A program made the position numbers and the translations under genes. A stretch of DNA of 58,330 nucleotides, taken from sequence record SRR31156797_2267. One strand, given 5' to 3'. Below are positions 7,665 through 28,979 of this stretch, one piece after another. The stretch's first letter is position 1, and each line of letters begins with the position of its first letter. The notes under the pieces were generated by a model that worked only from the letters and a program-made list of their open reading frames with translations, was not told the origin of the DNA and ran no database searches.

Positions 7665-7665
7665 G

Positions 7666-8280: not shown

Positions 8281-8286
8281 CTTAAA

Positions 8287-9417: not shown

Positions 9418-9422
9418 AAAAA

Positions 9423-10957: not shown

Positions 10958-11939
10958 TATAAATTCCAGCCTTGTATTTGTTTAAGTTTTCTTTTTTTGA
11001 AAACCATTCTATTGTTTCTTGCAGGCCCATATCCAATGTATATTTTTGTTCCCAATTTGTAAGTTCAATTAGTTTTTTATTTGATCCATACAGTCGGTTG
11101 ACCTCACTTTTTTCGGGACGGATACGTTCTTCATCACAAATGATCTTTGCGTCTGGCTTTATCATATTAATTAGTTTACCGGCAAGATCACCAATGGATA
11201 TTTCGCTTTGAGTAGCTATATTGATCTCATGTCCGATCGTTGAATTTGATCGCGCAATCTCAATAAATCCCGCAACGGTATCTTTCACATATAAGAAATC
11301 TCTCGTCGGAGAAACAGCTCCCAGCTTAATTTCAGAATAACCAGATTGAAGTTGAGTAATGATCGTCGGAATAACTGCTCTGGCAGACTGTCTTGGTCCA
11401 AAGGTATTAAATGGCCTAACAATTGTCATCGGTAGATCAAAAGAACGATAGAAAGATTCCGCCAGACGGTCAGCTCCTATTTTAGTCGCACTATAAGGTG
11501 ACTGTCCTTGATATGGATGCTCTTCTGTAATGGGAATGAATTTAGCCGTACCATATACCTCTGATGTCGATGTTATCAATACTCTTTCGGTTCCCAGATC
11601 CCTGGCGGCGCTCAATACATTCAAAGTACCTTTAATGTTTGTATCGACATAGCTGTCCGGTGAATGGTAACTAAAAGGGATCGCGATCAATGCAGCAAGA
11701 TGATAAACAATATCGCAACCCGTTATTGCCGTTCTAACACCATTGGGGTCACGGACGTCACCGGCAAAAATCTCTATCTTTTCTTTAATTTCTGATGGTA
11801 AAGTATCTATCCAACCCCACGAGTTAAATGAATTATAGTAAATAAATGCTCTAACATCGTATCCAAGTCGAACAAGTTCTTCTACTAAATGACTGCCTAT
11901 AAAACCGTCAGCACCTGTGACCAGCACTTTCTTTTTCAT
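10950..11939 (-). CDS. NDP-GlcNAc 4,6-dehydratase, LegB-like
   Basis: GADGFIGSHL, YYNSFNSWGW, ALIAIPFSY, STSEVYG, YSATK, RPFNTFGPRQSARA; ATG at 11939 overlaps the upstream TGA. Confidence 0.85.
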   Translation of the reverse strand: MKKKVLVTGADGFIGSHLVEELVRLGYDVRAFIYYNSFNSWGWIDTLPSEIKEKIEIFAGDVRDPNGVRTAITGCDIVYHLAALIAIPFSYHSPDSYVDTNIKGTLNVLSAARDLGTERVLITSTSEVYGTAKFIPITEEHPYQGQSPYSATKIGADRLAESFYRSFDLPMTIVRPFNTFGPRQSARAVIPTIITQLQSGYSEIKLGAVSPTRDFLYVKDTVAGFIEIARSNSTIGHEINIATQSEISIGDLAGKLINMIKPDAKIICDEERIRPEKSEVNRLYGSNKKLIELTNWEQKYTLDMGLQETIEWFSKKENLNKYKAGIYNV

Positions 11940-13000
11940 CAATTTTTCTCCAAACTATTAATGATTTTATTCCATGTTTCCGAAGCGGAAGCATATGAAT
12001 AATCCTCTATAATTTTAAATCTCGCCTTTTTTGATAAAGTATCATAGAGATTTTTATCTTCAAGCAATATTTTTACTTTATTAGTATAATCTTCAATATC
12101 CATAGCATCTTCGACAAGAAAACCATTATTTTTATTTTCAATTATGTCCTCCATGTCTCCTACCTTGGATGCCACACAGGGAATTTCACATGCCATTGCC
12201 TCAAGTATGGTCCTTGGAAGGCCTTCTGTATGAGATGTCAAAAGAAATACTCTTGAGCTATTATAAAATTCCTCAATGTTATCGACAAAACCTAACATAC
12301 TGACGTTATTTTCTAAATTGAGATCCTGGATCATGGTCTTAAGGGATTTTTCCTCAGGACCTTTACCGGCTATCGCAGCTTTGATATTTGGAATATCTTT
12401 TTTAATCCCTGCGATTACTTTTAGAAAATTGCCCAGCTCTTTTTCTTCACTGATCCTGCCCAGGCTTACAATATCGTACTTTTTTTCGATCTGCATCGGT
12501 TTGAAAGTTTCAATATCTATCGAATTCGGCAATATGTATATTTTTTCTTTGTCAATACCATTTTCAATTAAAATATTTTTAGAATTGCTACCGGTGACTG
12601 TAACGGCAAACGCTCTTTTATACATGTAATTTGATATTAACTGCCTAAGACCTCTTCTTAATTGAGTATAACCGGGATTACCGATTATTGAAATAACACT
12701 TGGTACATTTCTTAGTTTCCCGGCAATATAGGCAAGCATTCCATGGGGTATTTCATAGATCCCGATAGCTAGGGTATAATCTTCAGTCATAAGCTTTATC
12801 ATCTTATAAAGCTTATGTATTTGTGCAAAGATACTCAGCTTGTGCTTGCTGGTATGGTATTCAACTTTCTTACATTTCAAGGCATCTTGATCTCGGAAAA
12901 CATCAATTCTGGATACTGAAGAAATATCCGAAATAGGTTTAATAAAACCGTAAGCTCCATATGGATCCAGTTTACATGCTAAAGCTATTTTTTTCAACAA
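11939..13000 (-). CDS. Glycosyltransferase family 4
   Basis: GRISEEK, EGLPRTILEAMA (EX7E), NGFLV; TTG start. Confidence 0.85.
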   Translation of the reverse strand: MLKKIALACKLDPYGAYGFIKPISDISSVSRIDVFRDQDALKCKKVEYHTSKHKLSIFAQIHKLYKMIKLMTEDYTLAIGIYEIPHGMLAYIAGKLRNVPSVISIIGNPGYTQLRRGLRQLISNYMYKRAFAVTVTGSNSKNILIENGIDKEKIYILPNSIDIETFKPMQIEKKYDIVSLGRISEEKELGNFLKVIAGIKKDIPNIKAAIAGKGPEEKSLKTMIQDLNLENNVSMLGFVDNIEEFYNSSRVFLLTSHTEGLPRTILEAMACEIPCVASKVGDMEDIIENKNNGFLVEDAMDIEDYTNKVKILLEDKNLYDTLSKKARFKIIEDYSYASASETWNKIINSLEKN

Positions 13001-13137
13001 AATTGTACTTTCATGAAATTTGATTTTATTTTTTATGCTTGTGATTTTATTGCATCGTCATACACATTTAGATGTACTTTTGACATTATAGCTGCTATAT
13101 CTTTCATTGTATTTTTTAATCTATTGGATCGTATTCA

Positions 13138-14478
13138 TTACTTAACATTATTAATTACAAATCTTCTTTTACCATTTCTTGGATTTGTCGGAATATCATT
13201 AATAATTTCAATACTGAAATTGACATCCTTGCCAATATAATCAACCATATCCTTATAGATCATATTCTCTTCATTTTGATCGTATTTCTCGTTTACAACA
13301 AGCTTTAGTATAATTTCATCTATTTTGTTTTGCACCACCTGAAACTGAGAAACCGAATCTATCCATTCAAAATATACCGTAAAGAAATGGACGATTATAC
13401 TTTTCCCACTTGGTGTTAATAGAATATCAACATCTCTACCCTCAATGCGTTCAAGGACGGGAAGTTTTCTTTGACAAGAGCAAGGTTCTTTAGAAATAAT
13501 GCCGACATCTTTTGAATTATACCGTATGAAAGGTACTGCGTAATTCCAAAGATCCGTTGATATTATCTCTCCCTTTTCATCACCGTGACCGAATTTTTGA
13601 TTTGGAATGATTTCGGTAATGGCATATTCAGATGAAATATGGTATTTATCATGTGTTTCGCATTCAAAGACCGTTGCACCACCATCACCTGTATATGAGT
13701 CAAATATCTTACAATCAAAAACTTGCTCTATCTTCTTTCTCATATGTGGAAATAATATTTCACCGGTCGTGTTGATTGCTTTCAGCTTAATATTATTTGA
13801 CTTTGATTTTTCAATATGTTCAGCAAGTAAATATATTGTTGATGGATACCCTCTTATGATCTTGACACCGGATGATTCAATTGATTGTGTAATATTCTCA
13901 ATTTCCTCTACCGACAAGCTTTGAGTTAGCATGTATTGACAATTATTGATCTTATCCTGGAGCTTTTTCTTAAAACTGTCTCTTGGATTCTGACTGAGTT
14001 TTACATAAAAATCTCCTAAACGATAGCCCATCCAATACCAGCCGCGCAAATTAGCGGCAACATTAAAGCTGTATGCGTCATTTGAAACATAAAATTGTAC
14101 GGGTTCACCCGTTGAACCGCTTGAACCCAATAAGAACATATCTTTTTTTCTGATATTCCGTGCAACGATCTTTCCGGTTTTCATATTTTCACGAACGATC
14201 TCTTTTGTTAAAACCGGTAATTTATTCAAATCTTCTTTCGTTCTGATATCTTCAGGTTTCAGTCCCAATCGATCGAATAATTCCTTATAGTATTCAACAT
14301 TATTATAAGCATGATGGACCAGGTCACATAATTTTTTGTTTTGAAATCTGGTAAGCTCCTCTTCAGACCACCATTGACTTTTTTGAAGAAAATTCAAATG
14401 CTTGTGCACTGATTGGTTCATAATAATATCGCCGGCAGGCAGTAGGATTTTCTCAGATATGATATTTCTTAAACTCAA
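13138..14478 (-). CDS. Phenylacetate-CoA-ligase-like adenylating enzyme (CapK family)
   Basis: AYNNVEYY, LPVLTK, SSGSTGEP, GYPS, PFIRY..D, IEGR, GKRRF. Confidence 0.85.
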   Translation of the reverse strand: MSLRNIISEKILLPAGDIIMNQSVHKHLNFLQKSQWWSEEELTRFQNKKLCDLVHHAYNNVEYYKELFDRLGLKPEDIRTKEDLNKLPVLTKEIVRENMKTGKIVARNIRKKDMFLLGSSGSTGEPVQFYVSNDAYSFNVAANLRGWYWMGYRLGDFYVKLSQNPRDSFKKKLQDKINNCQYMLTQSLSVEEIENITQSIESSGVKIIRGYPSTIYLLAEHIEKSKSNNIKLKAINTTGEILFPHMRKKIEQVFDCKIFDSYTGDGGATVFECETHDKYHISSEYAITEIIPNQKFGHGDEKGEIISTDLWNYAVPFIRYNSKDVGIISKEPCSCQRKLPVLERIEGRDVDILLTPSGKSIIVHFFTVYFEWIDSVSQFQVVQNKIDEIILKLVVNEKYDQNEENMIYKDMVDYIGKDVNFSIEIINDIPTNPRNGKRRFVINNVK

Positions 14479-15566
14479 TTAACCACCCTTATATATAAAT
14501 CGATAAAAGATTGTGACATTTTATCCAGATTGAAATACTCACATATTCTTTTTTTGCCCAAAATACCCATTTTAATTCTTTTTTCAGGATCATTGATCAG
14601 AAATAATATTTTCTCTCTCAGATCATTAGTATCTTCATTCCTAATGACAAAACCTGTTTCATTGTTTTCTATGATCTCTGATGTACCACCGCTATCGGAG
14701 GCTATCACGGGTTTCCCGATAACCATATATTCCAATATTGAATTTGATATCCCTTCACCATGCATTTGTCCATTTGTCATTAATACGCATAAATCAGAAG
14801 CATTCACAAGAGATTCAATATTCTCCCTTCTTCCAGGCAATTTAATATTGTCATATGTCCTGGAATCATCTCTATACTTCTCAAGATCCTTCCCTTCTCC
14901 AATACCCATAAATGTAATATCATTCCTTTTATCGCATATCTCTTTTGCAACAGCAATATAACTATCATAATCTTTTCTATCCGAAAAAGCCCCAACCATT
15001 GTAACAAGATATTTTGTTTTTATACCATAGCTTTCTCTTGTAATTTCTTTTGTTTCCAGGTTTTTAACCCTATTCATGTCAAAACCGTTATATATGCATT
15101 CAGATTTACCTATCGGGGCATTATAAGACAATAGTCCTGCTTTAGAATTTGCCAGTATTTTGTCCGAATTTCTAAAATTCAATTTTGTCTGCAATCCAAA
15201 TATTGATATCCAATTAATATGTTGAGGGGCATCCGTTATTTGTGAATTTATCAGTTTAAATTTTAATTTCTTCTTTGCGTGGATGGCATACGTAGCATTC
15301 ATGCTTGACCAGCAATGTACAATGTCGGGGTTGATCTCTTTACAGAGCTTATAGAACTTGACAAATATCGAGAGATCACCTTTTCTTTTTTTAATTAAAT
15401 GATATGGATAATCAAGCGTATGAAATTCTGGATAAACAATTTCCTCCCTTAAAGAAACAATATGTATATCAAATCTATGATCATTTTTAAGAGCTTTAAG
15501 AAGCTCTATACAGCGTCTTTCTTTTCCACCGGATCGAAAGCCATCGACAAAAAATACTATTTTCAT
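14475..15566 (-). CDS. Glycosyltransferase family 4
   Basis: SGGKERR, PDIVH, IYNG, RKDY, EGISNSILEYM..GKPV. Confidence 0.88.
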   Translation of the reverse strand: MKIVFFVDGFRSGGKERRCIELLKALKNDHRFDIHIVSLREEIVYPEFHTLDYPYHLIKKRKGDLSIFVKFYKLCKEINPDIVHCWSSMNATYAIHAKKKLKFKLINSQITDAPQHINWISIFGLQTKLNFRNSDKILANSKAGLLSYNAPIGKSECIYNGFDMNRVKNLETKEITRESYGIKTKYLVTMVGAFSDRKDYDSYIAVAKEICDKRNDITFMGIGEGKDLEKYRDDSRTYDNIKLPGRRENIESLVNASDLCVLMTNGQMHGEGISNSILEYMVIGKPVIASDSGGTSEIIENNETGFVIRNEDTNDLREKILFLINDPEKRIKMGILGKKRICEYFNLDKMSQSFIDLYIRVVN

Positions 15567-16885
15567 TCATCACTCGTTGTTAATTGGCTTTCCATAATGG
15601 GTAGCATAAATAATAAGTATTGATTTGCTCCACTGGAATTTACCATGAAGATCGTTATGATATATGGAATGATAGTATAAAATGCGTTCATGGATTTACG
15701 ATTTCTGAAAGCATAAGAAATTAGTCTGATGTGTAAATAAAGAGTAATGAGCAAGAATACAAGCCCCCCTCTATATAAAATATTTACAAAATAATTATGC
15801 GCAGCTCTATAAAAATTAATGATCGTGGGATTACCGAAAATAAAACTCTTGGGATTTGCAAACATATATTGCAAATAAATATTCCATTTCCATATTCTAG
15901 TTCCCTGGTTTTCAACATTCGTGTGAGTAGAAATGGCAAAGTCATCAAAACGACTCATAAACATTATGAACTGATCAAAAAACAACAATATCACAAGGAG
16001 AAAAATAACGATAAGTGCAAAACTTCTATTTTGTCTAATATTCCTGACAAAGTATAAAAATGCTATCACCGCCAAGGCACCCAGTGCAGTTCGAGAAGCC
16101 GCGATCAAAATAGCCATGAGTGAGATCGCCAGAACAATATAATATTTTCTACTGAAATCCTTTCTCTCGATCATGGTCAAAATGTAACCAACATAAATAA
16201 CAATAAATCCTGCAAAGGTATTTACATCTCCTCCCGTAAACAGTCCTTTTGCGCGAATATTACTTGCAAAATCTTCCATAACACCTGTTTCACTCGTCTC
16301 AACATTCAATCCGATAGCATGTAACTGCCATGTAAAGATCGAGCTTAATGCAAGAAAAAGAATACCGAAAAATATACCCATATTTACATAATTTATTAAT
16401 TTTTTATCATATATCAGCGATAGGATCCTCAATAAGATCACGAATTTTAAACAAATCTTAAAATACATCTTAACAAAGGAGAAGAGGCCTTGACTCTCTA
16501 TACCGAATGCGGAATCCTTTAACCAAACATATAGTATATAGACAAGAGAGAAAAATATCATAGATCTGAGAATCTTGATGTACCCTTTTTTCCTTCCTTT
16601 GGATACCGGGATAGAAAATACAATGAAAAATGCAAATATCTGAACCAATTCCTCTATACCGATCACACCCATAAGATTAAATTCCGATGAAATAATTTCA
16701 CCCATGGGTATCAACATCACAAAAAGGGAAATAATAATATATTTATTTAGGAAATATATGACCAAAAGTATAAAGATGATCGTGAAGATCAGTGCAGTAA
16801 AGGCATTTAATGCGGATAAGAGAAGTATTGATGCGGTAAGTACCGAAAATATAAATATAGTTGTTCTATCGAGTTTAAAATCCAT
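15563..16885 (-). CDS. Wzy polymerase / O-antigen ligase family membrane protein
   Basis: About 11-12 TM segments, R..G.F...N motif, ASRTA, periplasmic R..W and AHNYF motif. Confidence 0.7.
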   Translation of the reverse strand: MDFKLDRTTIFIFSVLTASILLLSALNAFTALIFTIIFILLVIYFLNKYIIISLFVMLIPMGEIISSEFNLMGVIGIEELVQIFAFFIVFSIPVSKGRKKGYIKILRSMIFFSLVYILYVWLKDSAFGIESQGLFSFVKMYFKICLKFVILLRILSLIYDKKLINYVNMGIFFGILFLALSSIFTWQLHAIGLNVETSETGVMEDFASNIRAKGLFTGGDVNTFAGFIVIYVGYILTMIERKDFSRKYYIVLAISLMAILIAASRTALGALAVIAFLYFVRNIRQNRSFALIVIFLLVILLFFDQFIMFMSRFDDFAISTHTNVENQGTRIWKWNIYLQYMFANPKSFIFGNPTIINFYRAAHNYFVNILYRGGLVFLLITLYLHIRLISYAFRNRKSMNAFYTIIPYIITIFMVNSSGANQYLLFMLPIMESQLTTSDE

Positions 16886-16914
16886 TCATAATCCTTTAGA
16901 ATTTATTGTTAATT

Positions 16915-18129
16915 CTAATTATTTACATTGTCTTCTACTTCATCACAAATTCTTATCAATTGTTCATACTTTGCTTCATAGAATTTCAACATATGTTCAT
17001 TCTTCTCATTGTTCATCATATCGTTCAGCATATCAATATAATAAATATCCATCCCATCTTTTGTTGTAGATAGTATGGCAAATGTGAGAATTTTTTTCTC
17101 AAGGCTATCTAAACCGTAAGAGGAAATGAACGGTAGTTTAATATCAGTCTTTTTCATGAAACGAGCTATCTTATCTTGACCAACAATTTGGCTACCAATA
17201 ATATTAGCTAAACGCGTATATCCTTTTTCCACCAAATAATTGCTTGCAAAGATCTCTTCATATTCGGAAATATCAGTTAATAATAGACCTATCCTTGATA
17301 GTAGTCCCACTAATTTCATTTCATCGGGATTGATCATGGCTCTACCTCGACGGCTGATTTCCTTACTGATATTATAAGCTTTTGTAGAAACCGCTTTAAT
17401 GTATTTCAAATAATCATCTTTGTTCTCAATGTACTCACAACTGTCAAGCAATGTGTGTAATATATCAATTGCCGTTTCTTCTGAAATTGTTAAATAATTT
17501 TTAAGTTCGCCATCAACTTCATTTATTGATTTTGAAATTTCCAAATAACTATAATCATGATTAATGGATTTATATCTGTCATGATGTATTCTTTCATTCA
17601 ACGGTCTTTTTTGAGGTGCAAAAGGTTCATTCTTCCGCTTCCCTAAAGGAATGATAACCAGGGGAATATAGGTTTCCGGAAGATCCAATATCTTAGAAAT
17701 TTCTTTTTCGTCAAAGCTACTGATCCATAGCGTATCAATGTCCATAGAATTAGCTGCCAGCATGATATTTTGCGTTGCAGCAGCCGCATCCATATGGATG
17801 AAGATACTGCTACCTTTCTCAGCGGTGGTGTTCGAATGTGAACTAAGTGATCCAACTTTTCTTGCTAGGAACAGATCACCTATCACAACAATAGTCGCAT
17901 CCACTTTAGATGTTTGATTTTGTTGGCAAGGCTTTGTAAGTGCATTTAAAACTTCTTTATCACGTATGACAATAAACTCGAGAGGTTGAATATTCCTGGC
18001 TGAAGGAATAAATTTCGCTGCCTCAAGTAATTTCATCACCGTATCATCATCAATCTTATAATCCTCAATAAACGATCTTACACTACGTCGGCTTTTTATA
18101 ATGTCAAAAACAGTCTCGTATTTACTCAT
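16915..18129 (-). CDS. Nitroreductase-family flavoprotein fused to a degenerate HD domain
   Basis: N-terminal IKSRRSVRSF, PSARNIQP, DAAAATQNIMLAA, LGK; C-terminal half follows the HDIG pattern (GLLSRIG in place of GLLHDIG, LEKKIL). Confidence 0.75.
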   Translation of the reverse strand: MSKYETVFDIIKSRRSVRSFIEDYKIDDDTVMKLLEAAKFIPSARNIQPLEFIVIRDKEVLNALTKPCQQNQTSKVDATIVVIGDLFLARKVGSLSSHSNTTAEKGSSIFIHMDAAAATQNIMLAANSMDIDTLWISSFDEKEISKILDLPETYIPLVIIPLGKRKNEPFAPQKRPLNERIHHDRYKSINHDYSYLEISKSINEVDGELKNYLTISEETAIDILHTLLDSCEYIENKDDYLKYIKAVSTKAYNISKEISRRGRAMINPDEMKLVGLLSRIGLLLTDISEYEEIFASNYLVEKGYTRLANIIGSQIVGQDKIARFMKKTDIKLPFISSYGLDSLEKKILTFAILSTTKDGMDIYYIDMLNDMMNNEKNEHMLKFYEAKYEQLIRICDEVEDNVNN

Positions 18130-18877
18130 TATAAAACTCCTTTGCTATTTCAAGATCATGAAGGTCATCCACTTCACACCATTTATAACCATTCATATCC
18201 ATTGCATACTGAATATAATCTGAATTTTTTACTAGATTATCAATAGCACTATGATGGAAAGAATTGATACCGGCCTGCAGTTGTTCATAAATTTTATCGA
18301 AAAATTGCGTCGAGCCCTTTGCTGAAAATTTATGGATCCCAACCGTACAGCCGTAACCTTCATAAAATGTTTTACTAAATGCTCTAATTTTATTTGATCC
18401 ATTATCAACCAAAACTTTCATTCCGTCTTCCGGCAAGGGGCGTGTACTGTCAATTACTGAGAGATTTTCGAATTCCGAATTAAATACATCGATCAACACT
18501 TGCTTATCATAGAGAATATCACCATTGATAAGAACAAACTGTTTTCCTTTCAAGTACATACTTGATAGCCAAACAGAAAAATTGTTATTAAGTATTGAAT
18601 ACAATGGATTTTCGATCATTTTTATATTCAAAGCATCCAAGTCAAGAGAAGATACGTACTCAATGATCTTTTCCTTCCTGAATCCAATACATATATTTAC
18701 ATCCTTGATCTTGATATCATTGGTTTTGACAATTTCATTCAAATACAACAAGGATTGTCCCAGCATGGTTCTTCCATTAATATCAATGATAGATTTTGGT
18801 GTATCTACCGTCAGGGAGCCTAATCTGCTTCCCATTCCTGCTGCTAAGATCAATATTGAATAATCTGTCTTGCTCAT
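18122..18877 (-). CDS. LicC-like phosphocholine/phosphoalcohol cytidylyltransferase
   Basis: LILAAGMGSRL..PKS, ENPLY, INGDILY, MKV, WCEVDDLHDL. Confidence 0.78.
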   Translation of the reverse strand: MSKTDYSILILAAGMGSRLGSLTVDTPKSIIDINGRTMLGQSLLYLNEIVKTNDIKIKDVNICIGFRKEKIIEYVSSLDLDALNIKMIENPLYSILNNNFSVWLSSMYLKGKQFVLINGDILYDKQVLIDVFNSEFENLSVIDSTRPLPEDGMKVLVDNGSNKIRAFSKTFYEGYGCTVGIHKFSAKGSTQFFDKIYEQLQAGINSFHHSAIDNLVKNSDYIQYAMDMNGYKWCEVDDLHDLEIAKEFYNE

Positions 18878-19842
18878 TTAACCTTCTCCAGAATTTTTGA
18901 ACACTTTGTTAATGAAATTGCTTCATATTCAGAACGAGAAATTTGCCTGAATACTCTTTCTAATATATCCCATATTTTATGATGATCTTCGATCGTTTGA
19001 GTATAAGGACTTTGACCCAATGCCAATTCAGACGAATGAAGCATCATGTTTATTACAGGCATCTCAAGCTTTGCTAATTTATTAATAAATTTATCGTAAT
19101 ATTTCATATCATATTTCGGATTTGGTCTTAACATACTGTATGTATTTAATTTTTTCAGTATTTTTCGTCCCAATCTGCTCATTTTCATTATATTTTTATT
19201 TTTTAAATACTTGCGTAATATTTTGCTAGGCATATTGACTGAAACTGGGATTTCAAACATCCCTGACATATCATCCTTAACCGGGTATAAGCTTTTTTGA
19301 GAAAAATCCGGACCCTTTTGCGATCTACCGATATTATTGCTCCAATTCACTCCGGGAACTACCGATGTATCAACTGAATACTTTTTTTCTTTTAACCACT
19401 TATATGTACGTTCGTCTACTCCCCACCTGCCGGCTCTATGTGATGTTGGAGCTTTCCCAAAATTGCTTTTAATAGTTTCGTGTAAACTATTGGTTTTATC
19501 CCTAAATAGATCATCAGGAAGTTCAAATTGATATGCGTGGATCCAATCCATATCTACACCATTCTTATCATTTGAAAAAGGTGGTGTTGTCCATACATGC
19601 AGATGATGACCAATTTCGCATTTATCCAAATCTGATTTTTGTTTTAGATAATCAACAGCCGGTTTGTAACTGGCATACTCATAAGAAAGCAAGTAAGTAG
19701 GAATGATACCATATTTCTCACATAATTCTTGAAATTTGGGTATTTCCTTGAAATTTTCTAATTTAATCTCAGCCTTTGAGTCCCATGCATTATCAGCCTC
19801 GGTATCTATAGTAATACAAAAATATTTACTGATCTGTTTCAT
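18874..19842 (-). CDS. Polysaccharide deacetylase (CE4, WalW-like)
   Basis: ITIDTEAD, EIGHHLHVWTTPP, HRAGRWG, VDTSV, MLHSSEL. Confidence 0.82.
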   Translation of the reverse strand: MKQISKYFCITIDTEADNAWDSKAEIKLENFKEIPKFQELCEKYGIIPTYLLSYEYASYKPAVDYLKQKSDLDKCEIGHHLHVWTTPPFSNDKNGVDMDWIHAYQFELPDDLFRDKTNSLHETIKSNFGKAPTSHRAGRWGVDERTYKWLKEKKYSVDTSVVPGVNWSNNIGRSQKGPDFSQKSLYPVKDDMSGMFEIPVSVNMPSKILRKYLKNKNIMKMSRLGRKILKKLNTYSMLRPNPKYDMKYYDKFINKLAKLEMPVINMMLHSSELALGQSPYTQTIEDHHKIWDILERVFRQISRSEYEAISLTKCSKILEKVK

Positions 19843-20417
19843 TTTACGACCCGATTAAACCTGAAACCCAGAATAAATCCACTTTTCAATTTACCTATAT
19901 ATTTAAAGCCTACGCGTTCATGAAGTTTTACAGAACCAATTCTATCCGAATAAATCCTACTCAATACAATGGTTTTTTTAAGCTTGAACATTTCATTGAT
20001 AGCATTATAAAGTAAAATACTTCCCAATCTTTTTCCACGAGCTTTATCATTTATGTAGATATTTGATATTTCAAATGATCTTTTCAATTCATTTTGAGGA
20101 GCAGGAGCAGAATAACGCCATTTTCTGCACCATACAGCTCCCATCAGCTCGCTATCTGTGAATATTCCATATGCTGGTATACTTTTTTCAAAACGATCGA
20201 TCAGGAGTGCATTCAGATCATTATAAGAATAATCACCAAGCTCTTTGACCCAACTCTTGATGATCTCTGGAATATCGTTCTTATCAAGTTTCCTGAATTC
20301 AAATTCGATATCGGAATCTATCATTATAAGTTCATTTTTATTTAGACGGTAAAGGGGCATTGCTTTCATTGAATACAAACGTTTTTTTACCCTTCTAAAA
20401 AGCCCTGTAATATTCAT
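19839..20417 (-). CDS. GNAT-family N-acyltransferase
   Basis: IYINDKARGKRLGS acetyl-CoA motif A, SVKLHERVGF motif B; ATG at 20417 lies just after the mutase stop. Confidence 0.75.
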   Translation of the reverse strand: MNITGLFRRVKKRLYSMKAMPLYRLNKNELIMIDSDIEFEFRKLDKNDIPEIIKSWVKELGDYSYNDLNALLIDRFEKSIPAYGIFTDSELMGAVWCRKWRYSAPAPQNELKRSFEISNIYINDKARGKRLGSILLYNAINEMFKLKKTIVLSRIYSDRIGSVKLHERVGFKYIGKLKSGFILGFRFNRVVK

Positions 20418-20418
20418 A

Positions 20419-22341
20419 TTAAAATATATAATTCCCATCTAAAGGCCACATGATGAAATCATTCATAGCTATTCGCTGAAGATCATTTTCTATCATTTGG
20501 AAGAGACTGTTTTTCCGTTCTTTCTTCTTCCTTTCTTCGACCTTTTCCAAGTGAAAATCTTTTATTTGATCGTTAAAGGGTAAATTACCAAATTTAGCGT
20601 ACCTGACTGCACCATTGATATCACGAATACATACAACCTCTCCCCGATTATATCTACTGGGTGAAAATGGGATGTCAATAACACCTTTGGCAAATGCTCT
20701 GATCGCACCTTTAGCCAGATCTCCGGCACCAAGTTTCAAGACAGCTGACATAATAGAATCGACCTCTTTATGAATGATCTTTCTTTCCCGATCAACGATC
20801 TTATGATCAATATCCATATCTTTGGCAAGCATGAACCCACGTTTACTGATCTTTACTCCAAGTTGATTTTCTTTTGTGGATGGAATTTTATGTGCTTCAA
20901 CCGGTGATTTCATCATCATTCTGTCCGCCTTGGAAAGTTGAGCACTTACAGCTGAATTAAAGATGAGCATCTCGGATTTTTCAAAATCACTGGGGAAGGC
21001 TGCCATATATTGGTGGAAAACCGTTGAGATGGTTACATCATTAATTCCAAAATAATGCAAATATTTATTATTCAATTCTCGATTTGCTTGCATTGCGGCA
21101 ATATCCTGTGAACGATTGCCTTGCTCCGCATATCCCACCGATATGCTTTTAACCCCTTGTTTGGCACTTAAGATCGTCTGAATAACATTGACGGCAATTG
21201 CCAATGAAGGAGGTATCAAATTTGCGGTTAAAACCCCGAACCATTCCCTGTTGATAATGATATTATCTTTTTCATTATACATTCCTACCAATCTATCCAC
21301 ATATTGCCAGTATTTCAGGCTTTCGCTTGGAGATGTCTCTTTATCATACGGGAACAGATAGCATAAGAATCCACCCTCAACGGCACTGGCTCCTCCCGAA
21401 ATAGCAATTTCATATGTTAAGCGATGATCCGGAGCTCCCCCACGGATCTGAAAAGGTATCTTTAAACTTTCTACAATATCAATTATTCCCTTTTGTCCAT
21501 ATATGGGAACGGGGAAACCATTAAGAAATGATTTCTTTTTGGCATTGCTGATCTCGACACCTTCTTTTGCCTTTTTATAATTCTTAACTCTGGTAGAGGC
21601 ATCAAGTTGTACAGACCCCACGTCAATATTGATCTTTTCAAGTTCCTGTAGCTTTTTTATTTGAGCTTGCAAGTTCGCTACACCTGTACGAGGCTGAAGT
21701 AAGGGCGTATCATTTTTATTTACTTGAACAAAATTTAGATTTTTATTTGGAAATGAATGCAGTTTTTTTACAATGGACCAATCGATATTTAGCCCGGTCT
21801 CCCAGGTTCTTAGTACTTTAACACGTTCATCTTCTAGTTTTTTCAGATCCCATTTTTGATCCGATATTTCATCAAGATCCGTATCAACTAATTTTGAGTT
21901 ATTATCTTCATGTACTTCATAGGGCCTTAATTTATCCCTTTTAATATCATTTTCAAGAAATTCAATAATATTATTCATAGGGATAAAATTAGGGAAAACC
22001 CTGTCAAATCCCATTTTCATATATTTACGTATCACTTCATTATTTTTCTCAGTGATCGAAAGATGCCCGCCAATATACCAAAGTTGATTTTCATTTTCAT
22101 TGGTATGATGAATGATCTCTTTGGCATATTCATTTAAATAAAGGCCGCTATGTCCATTCTTGCTTGATATCAGGACTATATGATAATCTTTTTCTGAAAC
22201 AAAGAAATCTTGCACGGAATTTTGAATACCGATATTATTAACTGAAAAACCTGCTTCTTTCAATCCCAAGGCGATCAAATTAATGCCTACAGAATGTGCA
22301 TCATCACCTATACCACCCATTAAAACTTTATAACCGTTCAT
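20419..22341 (-). CDS. Single-chain cobalamin-dependent glutamate (methylaspartate) mutase, GlmS+GlmE fusion
   Basis: N-terminal B12-binding DAHSVG (DxHxxG), SSKNGH, YIGG; then GlmE motifs QPRTG, DASTR, LNGFP, QIRGGAPD, EGG..CY..PY, WQYVDRLVG, INREWFG, TVFHQYM, DIPFSPS, RDINGAVRY. Confidence 0.9.
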   Translation of the reverse strand: MNGYKVLMGGIGDDAHSVGINLIALGLKEAGFSVNNIGIQNSVQDFFVSEKDYHIVLISSKNGHSGLYLNEYAKEIIHHTNENENQLWYIGGHLSITEKNNEVIRKYMKMGFDRVFPNFIPMNNIIEFLENDIKRDKLRPYEVHEDNNSKLVDTDLDEISDQKWDLKKLEDERVKVLRTWETGLNIDWSIVKKLHSFPNKNLNFVQVNKNDTPLLQPRTGVANLQAQIKKLQELEKINIDVGSVQLDASTRVKNYKKAKEGVEISNAKKKSFLNGFPVPIYGQKGIIDIVESLKIPFQIRGGAPDHRLTYEIAISGGASAVEGGFLCYLFPYDKETSPSESLKYWQYVDRLVGMYNEKDNIIINREWFGVLTANLIPPSLAIAVNVIQTILSAKQGVKSISVGYAEQGNRSQDIAAMQANRELNNKYLHYFGINDVTISTVFHQYMAAFPSDFEKSEMLIFNSAVSAQLSKADRMMMKSPVEAHKIPSTKENQLGVKISKRGFMLAKDMDIDHKIVDRERKIIHKEVDSIMSAVLKLGAGDLAKGAIRAFAKGVIDIPFSPSRYNRGEVVCIRDINGAVRYAKFGNLPFNDQIKDFHLEKVEERKKKERKNSLFQMIENDLQRIAMNDFIMWPLDGNYIF

Positions 22342-22342
22342 A

Positions 22343-23536
22343 CTACTTCTTTATCTTTATGACCTTTAAGAATTTTTCATATAACCGTTTTCTAATGAAA
22401 GACATATTCCTTCTCCCGGGTTTTCTATCTCTGGGATCATATATCTGCCATTCTTTGTTTTTTGCAAAATAGGCTTTTAGAGTTCTCCCTAGTCCATATA
22501 TCCTTTTTTCTGTAATAAATGAGTCTAGAATATACCTGAAATTGATCCAATATGCTTCTTTGGGATATTTAACAGACATTTTGTTTTTTATATCTATACC
22601 TGTTTTGTCATGATATGCCAATTCGGGAAGATTAATATCACATAAGGAAGTTAAATTATGAAATCCCTCTGTTCTGGGACTTACCTCAATAAAATAGAAG
22701 TCATCATCCTCAAGCGAATACTTAAATTCAATTCCCAATATCCCTCTATAATCAGTCGATTCCATAAATTTCTTTGTAAGTTCTTCAATTCTATCGGATT
22801 TGACCGGTTTCCCGATCGCCATGACTCCCCCTGTCTTAGGGTACATGGTATATTTTATTGCTGTAACTATTGAACATAGGTTAGAGTTGAATGATCGATA
22901 TGCCAAAGCTACCCAAATATCAGCTTTATCCCCTTCCTCTTCATAACCGGTGATCAATTCCTGAATAATTATATCTTTTGGTGAATCTACAAATTTTGAT
23001 AATGTGGCTTTGATTTTATCTTTGTTTTCAATAATAAGAGTTTTAAATGGTTTTTTTCCGGCTCCCTGGGAAGGTTTCGCGATCAATTTTCTATTTGGGT
23101 TTATATCTTCATTATCAATGGCTTCCCAAGTTGGAAATTTCCATGTCCGGGGATACGGAATACCTGCTTTTTTAGCTTCTTCCAGCTGACTTTCCTTGAA
23201 AGTAAGCTTATGAAGCTCCTGAGTTGTTAAGAATTCTTTTTCCAAAAGATCGGCATGATCTGTCAACATAGATACCATGTAATCATTGTCAAAATAGAGC
23301 ACATACTTTTCGGATGATTTTTTTGCCAGATCAAGAAGTTTATTCAACAATAAATCTTCATTAAGCTCATCAATTAATACTCTATGATGACAATACTTGC
23401 TGTAATAACCATAATTTAAATTATCCTTAATACCAAGAACAGTTATTTCAACATCTAGTTCATGTAAAGATCTTATTATCTGAAGACCATTCTCACCATG
23501 ACCGAGTATACAAACCAGAACAGGGGCTTTTGACAC
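22343..23536 (-). CDS. ATP-grasp carboxylate-amine ligase (D-aspartate-ligase-like)
   Basis: NGLQIIRSL, AGIPYPRT, IAKP, IIQELI, GILGIEFK, FIEVSPR; GTG start at 23536 after RBS GAGGAG, overlapping the licD stop. Confidence 0.78.
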   Translation of the reverse strand: MSKAPVLVCILGHGENGLQIIRSLHELDVEITVLGIKDNLNYGYYSKYCHHRVLIDELNEDLLLNKLLDLAKKSSEKYVLYFDNDYMVSMLTDHADLLEKEFLTTQELHKLTFKESQLEEAKKAGIPYPRTWKFPTWEAIDNEDINPNRKLIAKPSQGAGKKPFKTLIIENKDKIKATLSKFVDSPKDIIIQELITGYEEEGDKADIWVALAYRSFNSNLCSIVTAIKYTMYPKTGGVMAIGKPVKSDRIEELTKKFMESTDYRGILGIEFKYSLEDDDFYFIEVSPRTEGFHNLTSLCDINLPELAYHDKTGIDIKNKMSVKYPKEAYWINFRYILDSFITEKRIYGLGRTLKAYFAKNKEWQIYDPRDRKPGRRNMSFIRKRLYEKFLKVIKIKK

Positions 23537-24438
23537 TACTTTCTCCTCATCGGAGAGTTTTGTGATATCTCCCATTTTGATCTCGGTGTTTTCCAACTTT
23601 CTCCATAGATTTTTTCCAGTAAATATTCCGGATCACTTGGTACGTTCATTTCCATTTCACAAAATTTTACAACTTTTAATTCTTTAAAGTACTTTTTGTC
23701 ATGAGCCACGGTCATTTTGGGCAGTGTTTTTCTTTTCTTCAAATAATTATCGATCAATTTAAATAGTCTTTTTCTGCTTGATAAAGATAATCTCATTATG
23801 AAAGCAAATCTATTTTTTGATTTTTTTGAAGCTTTATCCATTGGATGAATTTTAATGACCTTATCATCATATTCAATTGTACAGTGATGATGAGTGTTTA
23901 ACTCACCCTGTTCGATCAATAACTCTTTATCTGAATATAGTTCTCCAGGTAAAATACCGGAGTTTAACAGAGCTCTACAGGTAATTCCATATGTTGAATA
24001 AACATTTTCTTCGCGAGGTAATGAGATATTGAGTAACGATCTTATGCCATTTAATATATTAAAAATCTTTGTTGTGAATTTTGTGCCATACTCATAGGCT
24101 ATATTATTTCCTCTACTTTTGTACCTGTGTAGATCAATTCTATATTGCCCATAAGTCCAACCTTTTTGCAGGATTTTAATATTGTTATCAAGAATATTAA
24201 TATGATAACCCTTTTCATCTAGCTCTTTCCATAGGTCTTTGTACTCGGCAATATTCTCATCATCTGTACTCAGGTCAAAGTCTCCATCCCATGGAATTGC
24301 TTCTCCATTTCTAACAGCCCCAAGTAATGTTCCAAAATCAATCCAATATTTCACACGATACTTATCCAATACCTCCTTAATATCTTGAAGCATTAGTATT
24401 GATTTTTCTCTTAATTGTATAATATTTATTTTTTCCAT
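23536..24438 (-). CDS. LicD-family phosphotransferase
   Basis: YWIDFGTLLGAVR..IPWDGDFDL, IDL, C-terminal P..PEYLLEKIYGESWKTP. Confidence 0.85.
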   Translation of the reverse strand: MEKINIIQLREKSILMLQDIKEVLDKYRVKYWIDFGTLLGAVRNGEAIPWDGDFDLSTDDENIAEYKDLWKELDEKGYHINILDNNIKILQKGWTYGQYRIDLHRYKSRGNNIAYEYGTKFTTKIFNILNGIRSLLNISLPREENVYSTYGITCRALLNSGILPGELYSDKELLIEQGELNTHHHCTIEYDDKVIKIHPMDKASKKSKNRFAFIMRLSLSSRKRLFKLIDNYLKKRKTLPKMTVAHDKKYFKELKVVKFCEMEMNVPSDPEYLLEKIYGESWKTPRSKWEISQNSPMRRK

Positions 24439-24445: not shown

Positions 24446-24994
24446 TCATTTCTTAATCGTTAATACATTTTTTTTAACAAACTTTTTTTCATCTAATTTC
24501 AATAAAATATCCTTTTTTTCTTCATTCATGAGACCTTTTGTGTGGACATTGAATTTTTTCATTCGCTCAACCATCTCATTAGTACTTGAGATATATTTAA
24601 TAGGATTTCCGGCAGCAAAGGTATTATCCGGAATGCTTTTATTTACTACTGACATTGCCCCAATAACACAATTCTCTCCAATTTCAACACCAGGCATAAT
24701 TATAGATCGTTGCCCTATATAAGAATTATCACCAATCTTTACTCTACCAAAATAATCAAAATCATCAAGCTCAGGATAAAGATTCCTCACCGATACAAAT
24801 CCTCCATGCGTTAAGATCAATACCTCTGGAGCAATTCTTACATTATTCCCAATTTCAATTAAGTAGGGTTCTGATGAAAAAAATTTAGTAGCAATTTTAC
24901 ACCCATTACCGATTTTAACACCAATGTGTTTAGCATATTTTTCACCAGAAACAAGTTTCTTATAAATCATTTCATAATAGGATTTCAAATTCAT
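24446..24994 (-). CDS. Hexapeptide-repeat O-acyltransferase
   Basis: SEPYLIEIGNNV, THGG, VKIGDNSYIG, IGAMSVVNK, AGNP. Confidence 0.85.
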   Translation of the reverse strand: MNLKSYYEMIYKKLVSGEKYAKHIGVKIGNGCKIATKFFSSEPYLIEIGNNVRIAPEVLILTHGGFVSVRNLYPELDDFDYFGRVKIGDNSYIGQRSIIMPGVEIGENCVIGAMSVVNKSIPDNTFAAGNPIKYISSTNEMVERMKKFNVHTKGLMNEEKKDILLKLDEKKFVKKNVLTIKK

Positions 24995-24999
24995 ACCGC

Positions 25000-26037
25000 T
25001 TACTCCTTGTTTCCTTCGAGAAGTTTATTATATAACTTAAAGTACATATTACTTACTTCATCTAGAGAAAATTTCTCTATAGTTTTTTTCATTTCATTAT
25101 TATTTAATTCATTTCGATTATTTTTTATTATACTGATTATGTCATCAATATTATTTAAATCACAAATATAACCGTTCTTTGTATTTTCTATATATTCTAT
25201 AAAACCGTGTTTTGAAGATATAACAATACACCCTGATGCCATTGCTTCCAAGCCAACCAAAGGCAGATTTTCATGTCTACTTGGAAATAAAGCAAATTGG
25301 GAAGAATTATAATATTCAGCAACTTCAATTGGTTTTAAACTTCCTAAAAACTTAATATTATTTTCGCTTGATTTATTATATAATGACCCTTTACCAATAA
25401 GTATAAATTCGTATTTCGGTAGCCTTTTTGCAATTGAAAGGATAACATCTACTCCTTTATCGACTGTTAATCTACCAACATATATAATTCTATTTTTTCG
25501 CCTAATAACATTATCTCTCATCTTATAGATATTATTATTTACTCCGTTGGGAATAAACGTTACCCTAATATTGCATTTATTCTCAATATATTTTTTCATG
25601 TGATTGGATACTGTCGTAAACAAATCATATTTTCTTAATATCATTTTCCTAAATAATTTAAATCTTAACCTATACGAGAATTTCCAATTATATTTTTCTT
25701 CTTCGCTATGATGGAATGTCATTATTTTTTTTGTATCATAATTTCTTAGAGCAATGGCAATAGTCGTATTTCCATGAGCATGAATAATATCAGGTTGAAT
25801 TTCGTTAACTAAGCTAATTATTTTTTTTCTACCAGTACCAAGATAATACAACCAATTCTTTTTTTGAATTTTTAAAGTAATAATATTTATTTTATTATGA
25901 TAATACCGGCTATGTTCTTTCCCAAAAACAATCAAATATACTTCATTTTTACTCTCTAATTCGTTTGCTATATCCCATGCAACTTTTTCAGATCCTCCCG
26001 CTGGAGGTAATGAATTTGCGATATATAGTATCTTCAT
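25000..26037 (-). CDS. Glycosyltransferase family 4
   Basis: MKILY..GGSE, PDIIHAH, IPNGV, GRL..DKG, ENLPLVGLEAMASG; start moved to ATG 26037. Confidence 0.85.
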   Translation of the reverse strand: MKILYIANSLPPAGGSEKVAWDIANELESKNEVYLIVFGKEHSRYYHNKINIITLKIQKKNWLYYLGTGRKKIISLVNEIQPDIIHAHGNTTIAIALRNYDTKKIMTFHHSEEEKYNWKFSYRLRFKLFRKMILRKYDLFTTVSNHMKKYIENKCNIRVTFIPNGVNNNIYKMRDNVIRRKNRIIYVGRLTVDKGVDVILSIAKRLPKYEFILIGKGSLYNKSSENNIKFLGSLKPIEVAEYYNSSQFALFPSRHENLPLVGLEAMASGCIVISSKHGFIEYIENTKNGYICDLNNIDDIISIIKNNRNELNNNEMKKTIEKFSLDEVSNMYFKLYNKLLEGNKE

Positions 26038-26050
26038 ATTATCACCGATA

Positions 26051-27517
26051 TTAAATTTTAATAAATGCACTCAACTGTTTCAAATCCAGTAGTTTTCTAT
26101 TTACGTAGATAAATAATATCGTGCTGAAATAGATGACTGCACTTAAGCAAAGAAACAATATCATATTAAGGTTAAGTAATTGCAAAACAAGAATTGGAAC
26201 TATGGGAATCAGCGAAATAATAAATATTTTTACTAAATATTTCCAAGGTATAAATTCTTTCCATTTCACATTCAATAGTTTTTTACTTCTTGCCAACTGT
26301 AAAATACCATTAATACTGAACGATGCCGTAAAGGTGATCGCAGCACCTATAATGCCAAAGAATTTTATTAACGGGAAAGCAATTGCAAGTGATATCGCAA
26401 ATCTTGTAAGATTAGCATAAAGTACATTTGAGGTTTTTGCATAAGCTCGTAAAATATACCCATAGCCTAGCATCTGAATAAAAAATACAAGAATAGTGAT
26501 CCTAAAGACATTAGCTGACATAGAATAATCTTCAGTAAATAGAAGTGTAATGAATTCATTTGCGACAATAAAAAAGAAAATAACTACCGGTATTGTGATC
26601 AGTGCATTTTTATTGACCATTTTTTTCCATAAGCTTAAAGTACCTTCAATATTACCTGTCTTGGAATAGTTGCTGAGACGTTGAATGACAACATTTCCGA
26701 TAGACGTATAAAGTATTGCGATCATTGGGATCCTGAAATTACCCACCGCATATAGTGCAAATTCATCAGAACTAAGAAGGATCATCAATACAAGTTTATC
26801 TAAATGATTGCCTATCTTTCCTATTACTGAACTCAGATACATTGGTAATGAATATTTAAATTGCTTAGCTATGGATCCTTTGTCCATTTTGAAAGGATTG
26901 ATCTTATATTTGATCTTCAAATAAAGATATAATACTAAAAACCTAATAAATGAAAACATGAAAAGAGCCAATAAAGCCGATTCAAGGGTTTTAAATATCA
27001 GAACAAATGTTAATAAAAGAATCAAACGTACAAGTTTTTCTACAGCAAAATAGATCATTGCAAGTTTTGATTTTTTCTCAACTACGAAAATTATCTCGAT
27101 AAGGCGTGATGAGCTCAAAAAGAATATAAAAAGGACAATTAAATAGAGTAATATGCCCTCTTGGGTATTGATCACTTCAACTTTTTTTAATAGAGTATCT
27201 CTGAAAATAAAAGCAATTGTCAATATAATAAAACTATATGCCGCCGGAATATAAAATGATTGCGACATCAGACTCTTTTTCTCTTTTACTTCAGTAGAAT
27301 TTGGATAAAAATAATATAAACTATTCGGAAGAGACAATGATAGCAAAGGAACCGCAAGTGTAGATATTGTAAGAATCTGCTGATAAACTCCATATTGAGT
27401 CTGATTGAAGATTCTTACTAAAATGATCGGAGTAATCAACTGTATAAAAAATGCTATTAATTTACCTATTGATAAATATCCCGCTTGTTGCTTTAATGAG
27501 TATTCGTTTTTAGCCAT
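26051..27517 (-). CDS. wzx: Wzx-type polysaccharide flippase (MATE-like)
   Basis: 12-14 TM segments, ILVRIF..QYGVY, FKYSLP, DKLVL, FGIIGAA. Confidence 0.75.
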   Translation of the reverse strand: MAKNEYSLKQQAGYLSIGKLIAFFIQLITPIILVRIFNQTQYGVYQQILTISTLAVPLLSLSLPNSLYYFYPNSTEVKEKKSLMSQSFYIPAAYSFIILTIAFIFRDTLLKKVEVINTQEGILLYLIVLFIFFLSSSRLIEIIFVVEKKSKLAMIYFAVEKLVRLILLLTFVLIFKTLESALLALFMFSFIRFLVLYLYLKIKYKINPFKMDKGSIAKQFKYSLPMYLSSVIGKIGNHLDKLVLMILLSSDEFALYAVGNFRIPMIAILYTSIGNVVIQRLSNYSKTGNIEGTLSLWKKMVNKNALITIPVVIFFFIVANEFITLLFTEDYSMSANVFRITILVFFIQMLGYGYILRAYAKTSNVLYANLTRFAISLAIAFPLIKFFGIIGAAITFTASFSINGILQLARSKKLLNVKWKEFIPWKYLVKIFIISLIPIVPILVLQLLNLNMILFLCLSAVIYFSTILFIYVNRKLLDLKQLSAFIKI

Positions 27518-28977: not shown

Positions 28978-28979
28978 TT

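Follow-up and report, generated by a model that had tools for sequence, protein, structure and literature searches.

A four-gene module with a fused glutamate mutase proposed to decorate a surface polysaccharide with 3-methylaspartate

The 58,330-nucleotide stretch of sequence record SRR31156797_2267 (hereafter the window, meaning the whole stretch) carries between positions 13138 and 24438 ten successive minus-strand open reading frames (ORFs), in which a gene for a single-chain glutamate mutase lies among genes of polysaccharide assembly. Four of them, coding for an ATP-grasp ligase, the mutase, an N-acyltransferase and a protein with a predicted CE4-type fold, were found together in all the independent loci known to us of this mutase clade. 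We propose, with a probability of around 0.55, that this four-gene module decorates a surface polysaccharide built by the Wzx/Wzy system with 3-methylaspartate, amide-linked by the ATP-grasp enzyme to an amine of the glycan. Gene content, protein families, folds, conserved residues and co-occurrence are what the analysis shows; which substrates are used, which way the amide bond runs and how the steps follow one another is inferred.

The ten genes sit inside a very long glycan region of the window, which is nearly all coding on the minus strand and has a G+C content of about 29-40%. Seven of the nine junctions between them are overlaps (61, 20, 4, 4, 8, 4 and 4 nt), and the other two are gaps of 1 nt and 29 nt; the first-pass annotation, made from the letters of the window, was right in describing ten contiguous and mostly overlapping or abutting genes. 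Families were assigned with Pfam and NCBIfam profiles at E <= 0.01, with sequence searches of the Protein Data Bank (PDB), and with AlphaFold models compared by Foldseek, and at the level of family or fold all ten labels given in that annotation hold. The four core genes are the following:

22343..23596, minus strand: ATP-grasp ligase of a small subfamily (PF02655, 28 bits); core; proposed methylaspartate:amine ligase
20419..22341, minus strand: fused MutS-MutE glutamate (methylaspartate) mutase, 640 aa (PF06368, TIGR01503); core
19839..20438, minus strand: GNAT N-acyltransferase (PF00583, 33 bits), in the core slot directly after the mutase
18874..19842, minus strand: CE4/ArnD-fold protein of 322 aa from an unnamed family (predicted fold); core; proposed N-deacylase

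A core of four genes shared by four loci

Loci with fused mutases were collected, 80 from species genomes, with an alignment of fused homologues as query, and 80 from metagenomes; a scan of the genome contigs with a single mutase sequence as query gave no matches. Among the 80 genome loci the cassette was found in L001 alone, which belongs to a Cloacimonetes single-cell genome (G001) and encodes a mutase 70% identical to that of the window, and among the 80 metagenome loci it was found independently in L083 and L084. A further locus, L082, is the same DNA as L001 and was left out of the counts. The orders of genes are:

L001: Wzx, glycosyltransferase of family 4 (GT4), LicD, ATP-grasp, mutase, GNAT, LicC-like, nitroreductase, CE4-fold, Wzy
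L083: Wzx, GT4, ATP-grasp, mutase, GNAT, CE4-fold, Wzy, hexapeptide transferase, insertion sequence (IS) element, GT4s
L084: Wzx, LicD, ATP-grasp, mutase, formyltransferase, CE4-fold, glycosyltransferases, sugar-type NTP transferase with two dehydratase/epimerases, GT4, cut CapK-like

Counting the window, the order ATP-grasp, mutase, N-acyltransferase, CE4-fold protein was detected in the four independent loci of this mutase clade, with the ATP-grasp gene directly upstream of the mutase in each of them; in L001 the gene order is rearranged, the CE4-fold gene lying after that of the nitroreductase. Identities across the four loci are 64-73% for the mutase, 39-45% for the ATP-grasp enzyme and 49-52% for the CE4-fold protein. 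No homologues of LicD, LicC-like protein or nitroreductase were found in L083, nor of the last two in L084, absence referring here to the 21.9 kb searched in contigs of 30.6 and 37.1 kb, respectively. The constant core is made of the ATP-grasp enzyme, the mutase, the N-acyltransferase and the CE4-fold protein, with LicD present in three of the four loci and the LicC-like/nitroreductase pair in two. The first-pass annotation had put the ten genes into one pathway and had named their co-occurrence across genomes as a check; this stood for the four-gene core, present in 4/4 loci, and did not for LicD, for the LicC-like/nitroreductase pair or for the CapK-like gene, whose linkage is loose. At positions 16613-17593 of L083, between the hexapeptide transferase and GT4 genes, an IS-type transposase is encoded (rve integrase core, 87 bits).

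The framework of the loci is also shared, as all four are set between Wzx/GT4 and Wzy/GT4 genes. Homologues of Wzy were found in L001 and L083, and those of the GT4 encoded downstream (14475..15566) reached 271-287 bits in L083 and L084, while at the upstream edge the GT4 gave 249-268 bits in L001 and L083 and the Wzx flippase 363-409 bits in L001 and L084. In the phylum to which G001 belongs, the mutase, the subfamily of the ATP-grasp enzyme and the two-domain nitroreductase were each detected in one of 232 genomes, which was the same genome for the three. Outside these loci, a Tara record carries the ATP-grasp gene at 11368-12549, the mutase gene at 12539-14464 and that of the CE4-fold protein at 15275-16219, and contigs of 35668 and 19171 bases from further metagenome records were also common to the matches of the ATP-grasp enzyme and of the mutase/CE4-fold pair.

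Predicted functions of the core proteins

The enzyme encoded by 20419..22341 looks like a true glutamate mutase (EC 5.4.99.1), because its MutE part scores above the curated equivalog cut-off of TIGR01503 (446 bits against 390; PF06368, 462 bits against 26.6) and because the site residues aligned with GlmE and the cobalamin motif are kept. The E part aligns with residues 2-474 of GlmE in 1cb7_B (355 bits), in such a way that R218, R251, R300, E322 and Y332 correspond to R66, R100, R149, E171 and Y181 of GlmE, which we take to be the glutamate-binding residues of the substrate site, and all of them are invariant in an alignment of 26 fused homologues. The N-terminal part aligns with GlmS (35-38 bits), and the DxHxxG motif appears as D-A-H-S-V-G at residues 14-19, D14, H16 and G19 being invariant or nearly so across 26 homologues. 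Fused single-chain mutases of about 640-650 aa constitute a large family, with 909 matches in the sequence search. Neither a methylaspartate ammonia-lyase nor any other follow-up enzyme of the known pathways was seen in the block with Pfam and NCBIfam. Far away from the cassette, G001 has two genes of the GlmL/MutL family (C34:17765-19234 and C22:4962-6401; 416 and 343 bits).

The ligase was modelled with a predicted local distance difference test (pLDDT) score of 87, and in Foldseek the model matched biotin carboxylase, PurK and PylC with E values of 1e-15. It probably starts later than the TTG listed for its ORF, because its homologues begin near residue 17-25 of the listed translation. Its subfamily is small but not isolated: an exhaustive search among 1.84 billion sequences returned ten representatives with at least 200 bits, and the gap that a word-index search had left below the 11 close clusters, where scores fell from 255 to 71 bits, was filled at 100-155 bits by the exhaustive search, so the subfamily as an isolated group was discarded. 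The first-pass annotation had described the enzyme as of the D-Asp-ligase type, a description not borne out as stated, since the link comes from the source name "D-aspartate ligase" of one protein 28% identical to it (71 bits), and no NCBIfam model or solved structure of a D-aspartate ligase matched the ATP-grasp protein of the window. In the phylum of G001, a copy of the subfamily (290 bits) is present in one of the 232 genomes and paralogues of up to 68 bits appear in 32 more; six of eight sampled loci of such distant paralogues lie among GT4, DegT-like or hexapeptide-transferase genes, and therefore the wider clade is associated with glycan genes too. Around alignment columns 340-350, the close subfamily has the motif I-E-(M/V)-S-P-R-T-E-G where distant relatives have E-x-N, the Asn of which occupies what we take to be the usual Mg-ligand position of ATP-grasp enzymes.

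N-acyltransferases unrelated to each other, either a GNAT or a formyltransferase, occupy the slot that follows the mutase. Those of the window and L083 are GNATs 37% identical to each other, that of L001 is a GNAT that could not be aligned with them, and L084 has in its place a formyltransferase (PF00551, 44 bits) with a weak match to the ArnA model (45 bits). The best PDB and NCBIfam matches of the GNAT of the window, all weak, are phosphinothricin and arsinothricin N-acetyltransferases, that is, enzymes that acetylate glutamate analogues, which is only a hint of its substrate.

With respect to the CE4-fold protein, present in the window, L001, L083 and L084, no Pfam or NCBIfam model matched it at E <= 0.01, PF01522 included, and no PDB sequence at E <= 10. 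Its AlphaFold model has a pLDDT of 93.8, and the top Foldseek matches were HP0310 (3qbu, E 1e-9), 3rxz, ArnD (8t0j), PdaC (6h8n) and chitin deacetylases, with template modelling (TM) scores of 0.45-0.66, in agreement with the distorted beta/alpha-barrel of deacetylases. The family has 603 homologues, and all source names among the 120 matches listed are "hypothetical". An alignment of 40 homologues revealed as invariant D13, E15, H80, H82, D97, H135, R136, R139, E197 and H269, among which D13, E15, H80, H82, R136, R139 and H269 are candidates for the Asp/His/His metal triad and the catalytic Asp and His of CE4 enzymes. From the predicted fold, we propose that this protein is an N-deacylase.

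A pathway can be put forward from these assignments. In a first step, the single-chain adenosylcobalamin-dependent glutamate mutase would turn L-glutamate into 3-methylaspartate, and in a second one the ATP-grasp enzyme would activate a carboxyl group of this amino acid and link it as an amide to an amine of the repeat unit. The equilibrium of glutamate mutase favours glutamate, which is why an irreversible step after the mutase makes sense, and ligation would also draw the mutase reaction forward. The third element would consist of one N-acyl transfer, of acetyl by the GNATs or of formyl in L084, and one deacylation by the CE4/ArnD-fold protein, acting on the amine of the sugar or on that of the amino acid. 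Three orders are equally compatible with the data: de-N-acetylation of the sugar, ligation and capping of the amino acid; N-acylation of free methylaspartate, ligation and then deprotection; or protection and deprotection of the amino sugar, as in the Arn pathway, before ligation. The second order would explain why acetyl- and formyltransferases are interchanged in the slot after the mutase. The first one is that of the first-pass annotation, whose main idea, methylaspartate amide-linked by the ATP-grasp enzyme to a freed amine and then capped, agrees with a mutase of true appearance and with the core found in the four loci, its particular sequence of steps being one of the three.

Several observations weigh against a methylaspartate-decorating module. 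Regarding the mutase, its B12-binding domain scores below the curated cut-offs (PF02310, 29.7 against 32.1; NF002612, 87.7 against 110), the Cloacimonetes copy is interrupted by an in-frame TAA (L001:10868-10870, the same in L082) where the window has a serine codon, which could be due to decay into a pseudogene or to an error of amplification or sequencing, and a PduO-type adenosyltransferase was not found in the incomplete genome G001. As for the ligase, it lacks a characterised close relative, its fold matches are generic, and its family is graded, with 25 representatives at E <= 1e-30, 578 at 1e-10 and 2496 at 1e-3 in the exhaustive search. The likeness of the GNAT to amino-acid N-acetyltransferases is weak (25-27 bits). 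The CE4-fold protein has H-x-H and not the usual His motif of CE4 enzymes, its family of 603 proteins is far wider than the mutase clade, and GH57 enzymes, which share the superfold, also match the model, although ranked after CE4-type deacetylases. Finally, no polysaccharide with methylaspartate turned up in literature searches outside subscription journals, and no chemistry is known for these organisms.

Variable genes and alternative explanations

The remaining genes of the block, and those at its upstream edge, are:

23536..24438, minus strand: LicD-family phosphotransferase (PF04991, 52.2 bits); frequent accessory, 3/4 loci
18122..18877, minus strand: LicC-like nucleotidyltransferase (PF00483, 22.0 bits); accessory, 2/4 loci, paired with the nitroreductase
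16915..18129, minus strand: nitroreductase domain plus a C-terminal domain without family, 404 aa (PF00881, 97 bits); accessory, 2/4 loci
15563..16885, minus strand: Wzy-like repeat-unit polymerase (Wzy_C, 30.0 bits, under the cut-off of 31.7)
14475..15566, minus strand: GT4 glycosyltransferase (PF00534, 94 bits)
13138..14478, minus strand: PaaK/CapK-like adenylate-forming ligase (NF045666, 137 bits; PDB PaaK, 86 bits); loosely linked
24446..27517, minus strand: hexapeptide acyltransferase, GT4 and Wzx flippase (Pfam); upstream edge of the block, common to related loci

Wzy and the GT4 had been counted among the tailoring steps by the first-pass annotation, and are better described as generic assembly genes. 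The LicD protein covers profile positions 3-227 of the 227 of PF04991 (gathering cut-off 22.6), its only NCBIfam equivalog match lies far under the cut-off (65.9 against 225), and homologues with 40-44% identity are encoded directly upstream of the ATP-grasp gene in L001 and L084. The LicC-like protein is borderline for PF00483 (cut-off 21.2), and its best PDB match, LicC (1jyk), reached only 33 bits over residues 7-137, followed with nearly equal scores by HddC, 4jd0 and the PntC-type 6pd1. The nitroreductase domain occupies residues 1-190 approximately (PF00881 on residues 11-164) and is followed by a C-terminal domain at 195-404. This C-terminal domain (16915-17545, about 210 aa) is kept in L001; a single and weak lead, to HD/HDOD (0.87), was obtained for it, and no HD motif was seen in its sequence. 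PDB matches of the nitroreductase are generic small nitroreductases, with an enone reductase and the cyclodipeptide oxidase albonoursin synthase among its fold relatives. Its two-domain form (482 bits) was found only in G001 among the 232 genomes of the phylum, 166 others having only short generic nitroreductases. The CapK-like protein has no Pfam match at E <= 0.01 and scores 137 bits with NF045666 (cut-off 300) and 101 bits with TIGR02155, in both cases under the equivalog cut-off, and its PDB matches to PaaK (9s3l, 4r1l) score 82-86 bits. Elsewhere, a cut copy is found at the end of L084, and in G001 the contig that carries the mutase gene has a copy 17 kb downstream of that gene.

Since the core persists without them, we treat LicD, the LicC-like protein and the nitroreductase as a separate optional decoration; together with the CapK-like ligase they are variable extras, which probably serve to install a separate phospho-linked or acyl substituent. 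Acting together, the LicC-like and LicD proteins could attach a phospho-linked group that may in turn be a target of the nitroreductase. An analogy with the tail of F420, with CofC/FbiD, the C-terminal reductase of FbiB, a phosphotransferase and the ATP-grasp enzyme CofF as counterparts, was considered and rejected: the LicC-like protein has no CofC match, no FbiB structure matched the nitroreductase at E < 0.01 and its FbiB-type matches (36 bits) are weaker than those to generic NfsA/BluB, and the pair is missing from L083 and L084.

The direction of the amide is the point on which the proposal has its nearest competitor. The ATP-grasp enzyme could instead activate the C6 carboxylate of a uronic acid and couple it to the amino group of 3-methylaspartate, in the way in which uronic acids receive amino-acid amides, a possibility that we consider unlikely. 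There is a precedent in Cj1438, whose C-terminal TupA-like domain amidates the C6 carboxylate of GlcA (PMC11800379), and the glycan surroundings of the distant ATP-grasp paralogues (6/8 loci) would suit it as well. However, the ATP-grasp protein of the window gave no match to the TupA-like family PF14305 at E <= 0.01, and coupling in this direction leaves the invariant CE4-fold gene and the N-acyltransferase slot without a role; in addition, no UDP-sugar 6-dehydrogenase was recognised in the block that the four loci have in common, where no search aimed at that family was made. Still less probable is the full model of the first-pass annotation, in which an amino-alcohol phosphate accepts methylaspartate in amide linkage, the LicC-like enzyme makes a CDP derivative of the product and LicD transfers it to form a phosphodiester, giving a methylaspartyl-phospho substituent. 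The contact between LicD and ATP-grasp genes, which overlap or abut in the window, L001 and L084, speaks for it, as does the fact that the closest solved relatives of the LicC-like protein (1jyk, 6pd1) act on small phospho-alcohols or phosphonates. However, L083 keeps the core without LicD, LicC-like protein and nitroreductase, and L084 has just LicD of the three, in such a way that installation through a CDP intermediate is not obligate and at most optional; moreover, neither a kinase nor an enzyme that forms an amino alcohol was recognised in the block, and the invariant CE4-fold protein is left unexplained.

It is similarly improbable that methylaspartate is only an intermediate, and that in the window and L001 the nitroreductase, of a flavin ene-reductase or dehydrogenase type, or other enzymes turn methylaspartate or its amide into a different branched acid, or that the mutase acts on a glutamate-like substrate rather than on free glutamate. 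After the mutase, the nitroreductase (56% identity) and the LicC-like protein (62%) are the best conserved proteins between the window and L001, and the solved relatives of the nitroreductase fold include the reductase and the oxidase named above. On the other hand, the nitroreductase pair is missing from two of the four loci, all the substrate-site residues of GlmE listed above are kept, and no methylaspartate ammonia-lyase or other known follow-up enzyme was seen in the block. That the genes are chance neighbours without a common pathway is very improbable: glycan loci are mosaic, L083 has an IS element and the accessory genes vary between loci, but the four-gene core is kept despite identities of 39-73% and a rearranged order, and the mutase and the ATP-grasp subfamily coincide in the same single genome of 232. 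Amide ligation of 3-methylaspartate to a glycan amine by the four-gene module is the explanation that we prefer.

The 80 genome loci also place the mutase in other contexts. Very large ORFs lie nearby in 47 of them, which judging by size, with no Pfam check, are probably nonribosomal peptide synthetases, an AsnB-like gene in 35 and an Asp/Glu-type racemase gene in 26, and most fused mutases therefore seem to supply methylaspartate to the synthesis of peptide natural products. In seven loci (L010, L016, L019, L020, L024, L027 and L052), from Ignavibacteria-type, Zixibacteria and Desulfobacterales genomes and one Thermodesulfobacteriota record, a CapK-like gene lies beside the mutase, with a Wzx-like gene in six of the seven, and the metagenome loci L116-L118 likewise pair CapK-like genes with the mutase. 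According to Pfam in L019 and L027 and to cluster membership, loci of this CapK type also have genes for an aspartate-type racemase and an AsnB-like protein, and homologous genes for a DUF2334/CE4-type deacetylase are present in L016, L019 and L020, checked with Pfam in L019 alone. Two layouts serve as examples:

L019: Wzx, CapK-like ligase, aspartate-type racemase (TIGR00035, 151 bits), mutase, AsnB-like, heparinase II/III-like
L044 (Planctomycetota): GT4, GT4, CE4-fold homologue (87 bits), GNAT-like protein of 352 aa, fused mutase, AsnB-like; positions 6350-13926 cover the genes from one GT4 to AsnB-like

Loci such as L019 give hints of D-methylaspartate or methylasparagine on glycans. The combination of a mutase, a carboxylate-activating ligase and a deacetylase-type enzyme recurs with non-homologous parts, and fused mutases are present in two further kinds of glycan loci, with other ligases. 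A wider and rather speculative interpretation, which we hold as doubtful, is that adenosylcobalamin radical chemistry decorates surface glycans in uncultured members of several phyla through at least three convergent kinds of methylaspartyl-glycan loci, with ATP-grasp, CapK-like or AsnB-like ligases, and that in the kind described here the acyl group is a transient protection. Removal of the transient acetyl or formyl group by the CE4-fold protein would then leave a free amine beside carboxylates, and hence a zwitterionic polysaccharide.

Around the block, the window contains further glycan genes. Just upstream of Wzx, an Arn-like set at 27526-31728 encodes a 483-aa protein without Pfam match, a DegT aminotransferase, two EamA proteins (117 and 114 aa) and a family 2 glycosyltransferase (GT2), which suggests a system for a side branch with an amino sugar linked to a lipid phosphate; no part of this set is shared by L001, L083 or L084. 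Beyond it lie genes for FabH, an AMP-binding enzyme and an SDR protein, and at 39386-47717 a second glycan locus headed by a NusG-like gene (47193-47717), with Wzx (41260-42711), sulfotransferases (40365-41246 and 45088-45789), an MBOAT protein (43648-45084) and a DegT gene, pointing to a sulfated and O-acylated polysaccharide. Downstream of the block we found a GT4, sugar-nucleotide enzymes, a QueC-like/HisH/HisF trio, two UDP-GlcNAc 2-epimerases and an initiating transferase of the Bac_transf type. In the trio (6903-9417), a weak QueC-like PP-loop protein goes with a HisH-like glutaminase and a HisF-like cyclase, which is the pattern of sugar acetamidino amidotransferases of the WbuX/Y/Z type.

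Comparison with known systems

The closest characterised relatives of the mutase are the GlmS/GlmE (MutS/MutE) proteins of Clostridium cochlearium and C. tetanomorphum (PDB 1cb7, 1ccw, 1i9c, 6h9e), which it resembles in the GlmE alignment, the site residues and the DxHxxG motif. Whereas the clostridial enzyme is an E2S2 assembly of two separate subunits, that of the window is one fused chain of 640 aa, and its gene lies in a glycan-assembly locus and not in a glutamate-fermentation operon, with neither a methylaspartate ammonia-lyase nor a GlmL gene adjacent to it.

A radical mutase followed by an ATP-grasp ligase is also found in pyrrolysine synthesis, where PylB makes a methyl-branched amino acid and PylC couples the carboxyl group of that amino acid to an amine. 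However, PylB is a radical-SAM enzyme and does not depend on B12, the acceptor of PylC is lysine and not a glycan, and PylC (4ffl, 4ffr) ranks 37-39 among the fold matches of our ATP-grasp enzyme, no better than PurK or biotin carboxylase. With regard to the acyl slot, in the Arn pathway the formyltransferase ArnA adds an N-acyl group to aminoarabinose and the deformylase ArnD removes it. ArnD (8t0j) ranked fifth among the fold matches of the 322-aa protein, and L084 has a formyltransferase in the slot, but no sequence-level relation to ArnD was found, and the Arn pathway is without amino-acid ligation.

Amino-acid decorations shape the charge, antigenicity and phage recognition of bacterial surface glycans, and to our knowledge all those described are proteinogenic amino acids or simple derivatives of them. 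If the proposal is true, a non-proteinogenic, branched and acidic amino acid joins glycan chemistry, and the structure of a capsule would be tied to the availability of cobalamin. It would also provide candidate functions for the ATP-grasp subfamily, for around 600 unnamed CE4-fold proteins and for single-chain glutamate mutases outside peptide natural-product clusters.

Porphyromonas gingivalis and Tannerella forsythia offer a parallel in logic with their Wbp/Vim pathway, a surface-glycan pathway in which an N-acetyl group is taken off a sugar and an amino acid is put onto the freed amine. In Porphyromonas, Ser or Gly is added by VimA once the CE4 enzyme VimE has taken off the 2-N-acetyl group (PMC7468200). 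There, Ser or Gly is used with a GNAT/FemAB-like transferase, whereas here the amino acid of a dedicated B12-dependent mutase would be used with an ATP-grasp ligase, and the deacetylase-like protein of the window matches no CE4 sequence model. The pathway also has the AsnB-like amidotransferase WbpS, and AsnB-like genes accompany 35 of the 80 fused mutases in genomes, including that of L044, the layout of which resembles VimE/VimA/WbpS. Cj1438, of the HS:2 capsule of Campylobacter jejuni, shares with our system an ATP-grasp enzyme and the formation of a capsular-sugar amide (PMC11800379), but it is TupA-like and activates the carboxyl group of a sugar uronate, whereas the ATP-grasp enzyme of the window is not TupA-like and is tied to an amino-acid-forming mutase. 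No paper joining a methylaspartate mutase with a glycosyltransferase and a flippase, or the mutase with glycans, was found in the literature outside subscription journals. The decoration of a surface glycan with an amino-acid amide by means of a deacetylase and a ligase is known, and what would be new in the module proposed here is the dedicated glutamate mutase, the ATP-grasp subfamily and the unnamed CE4-fold family.

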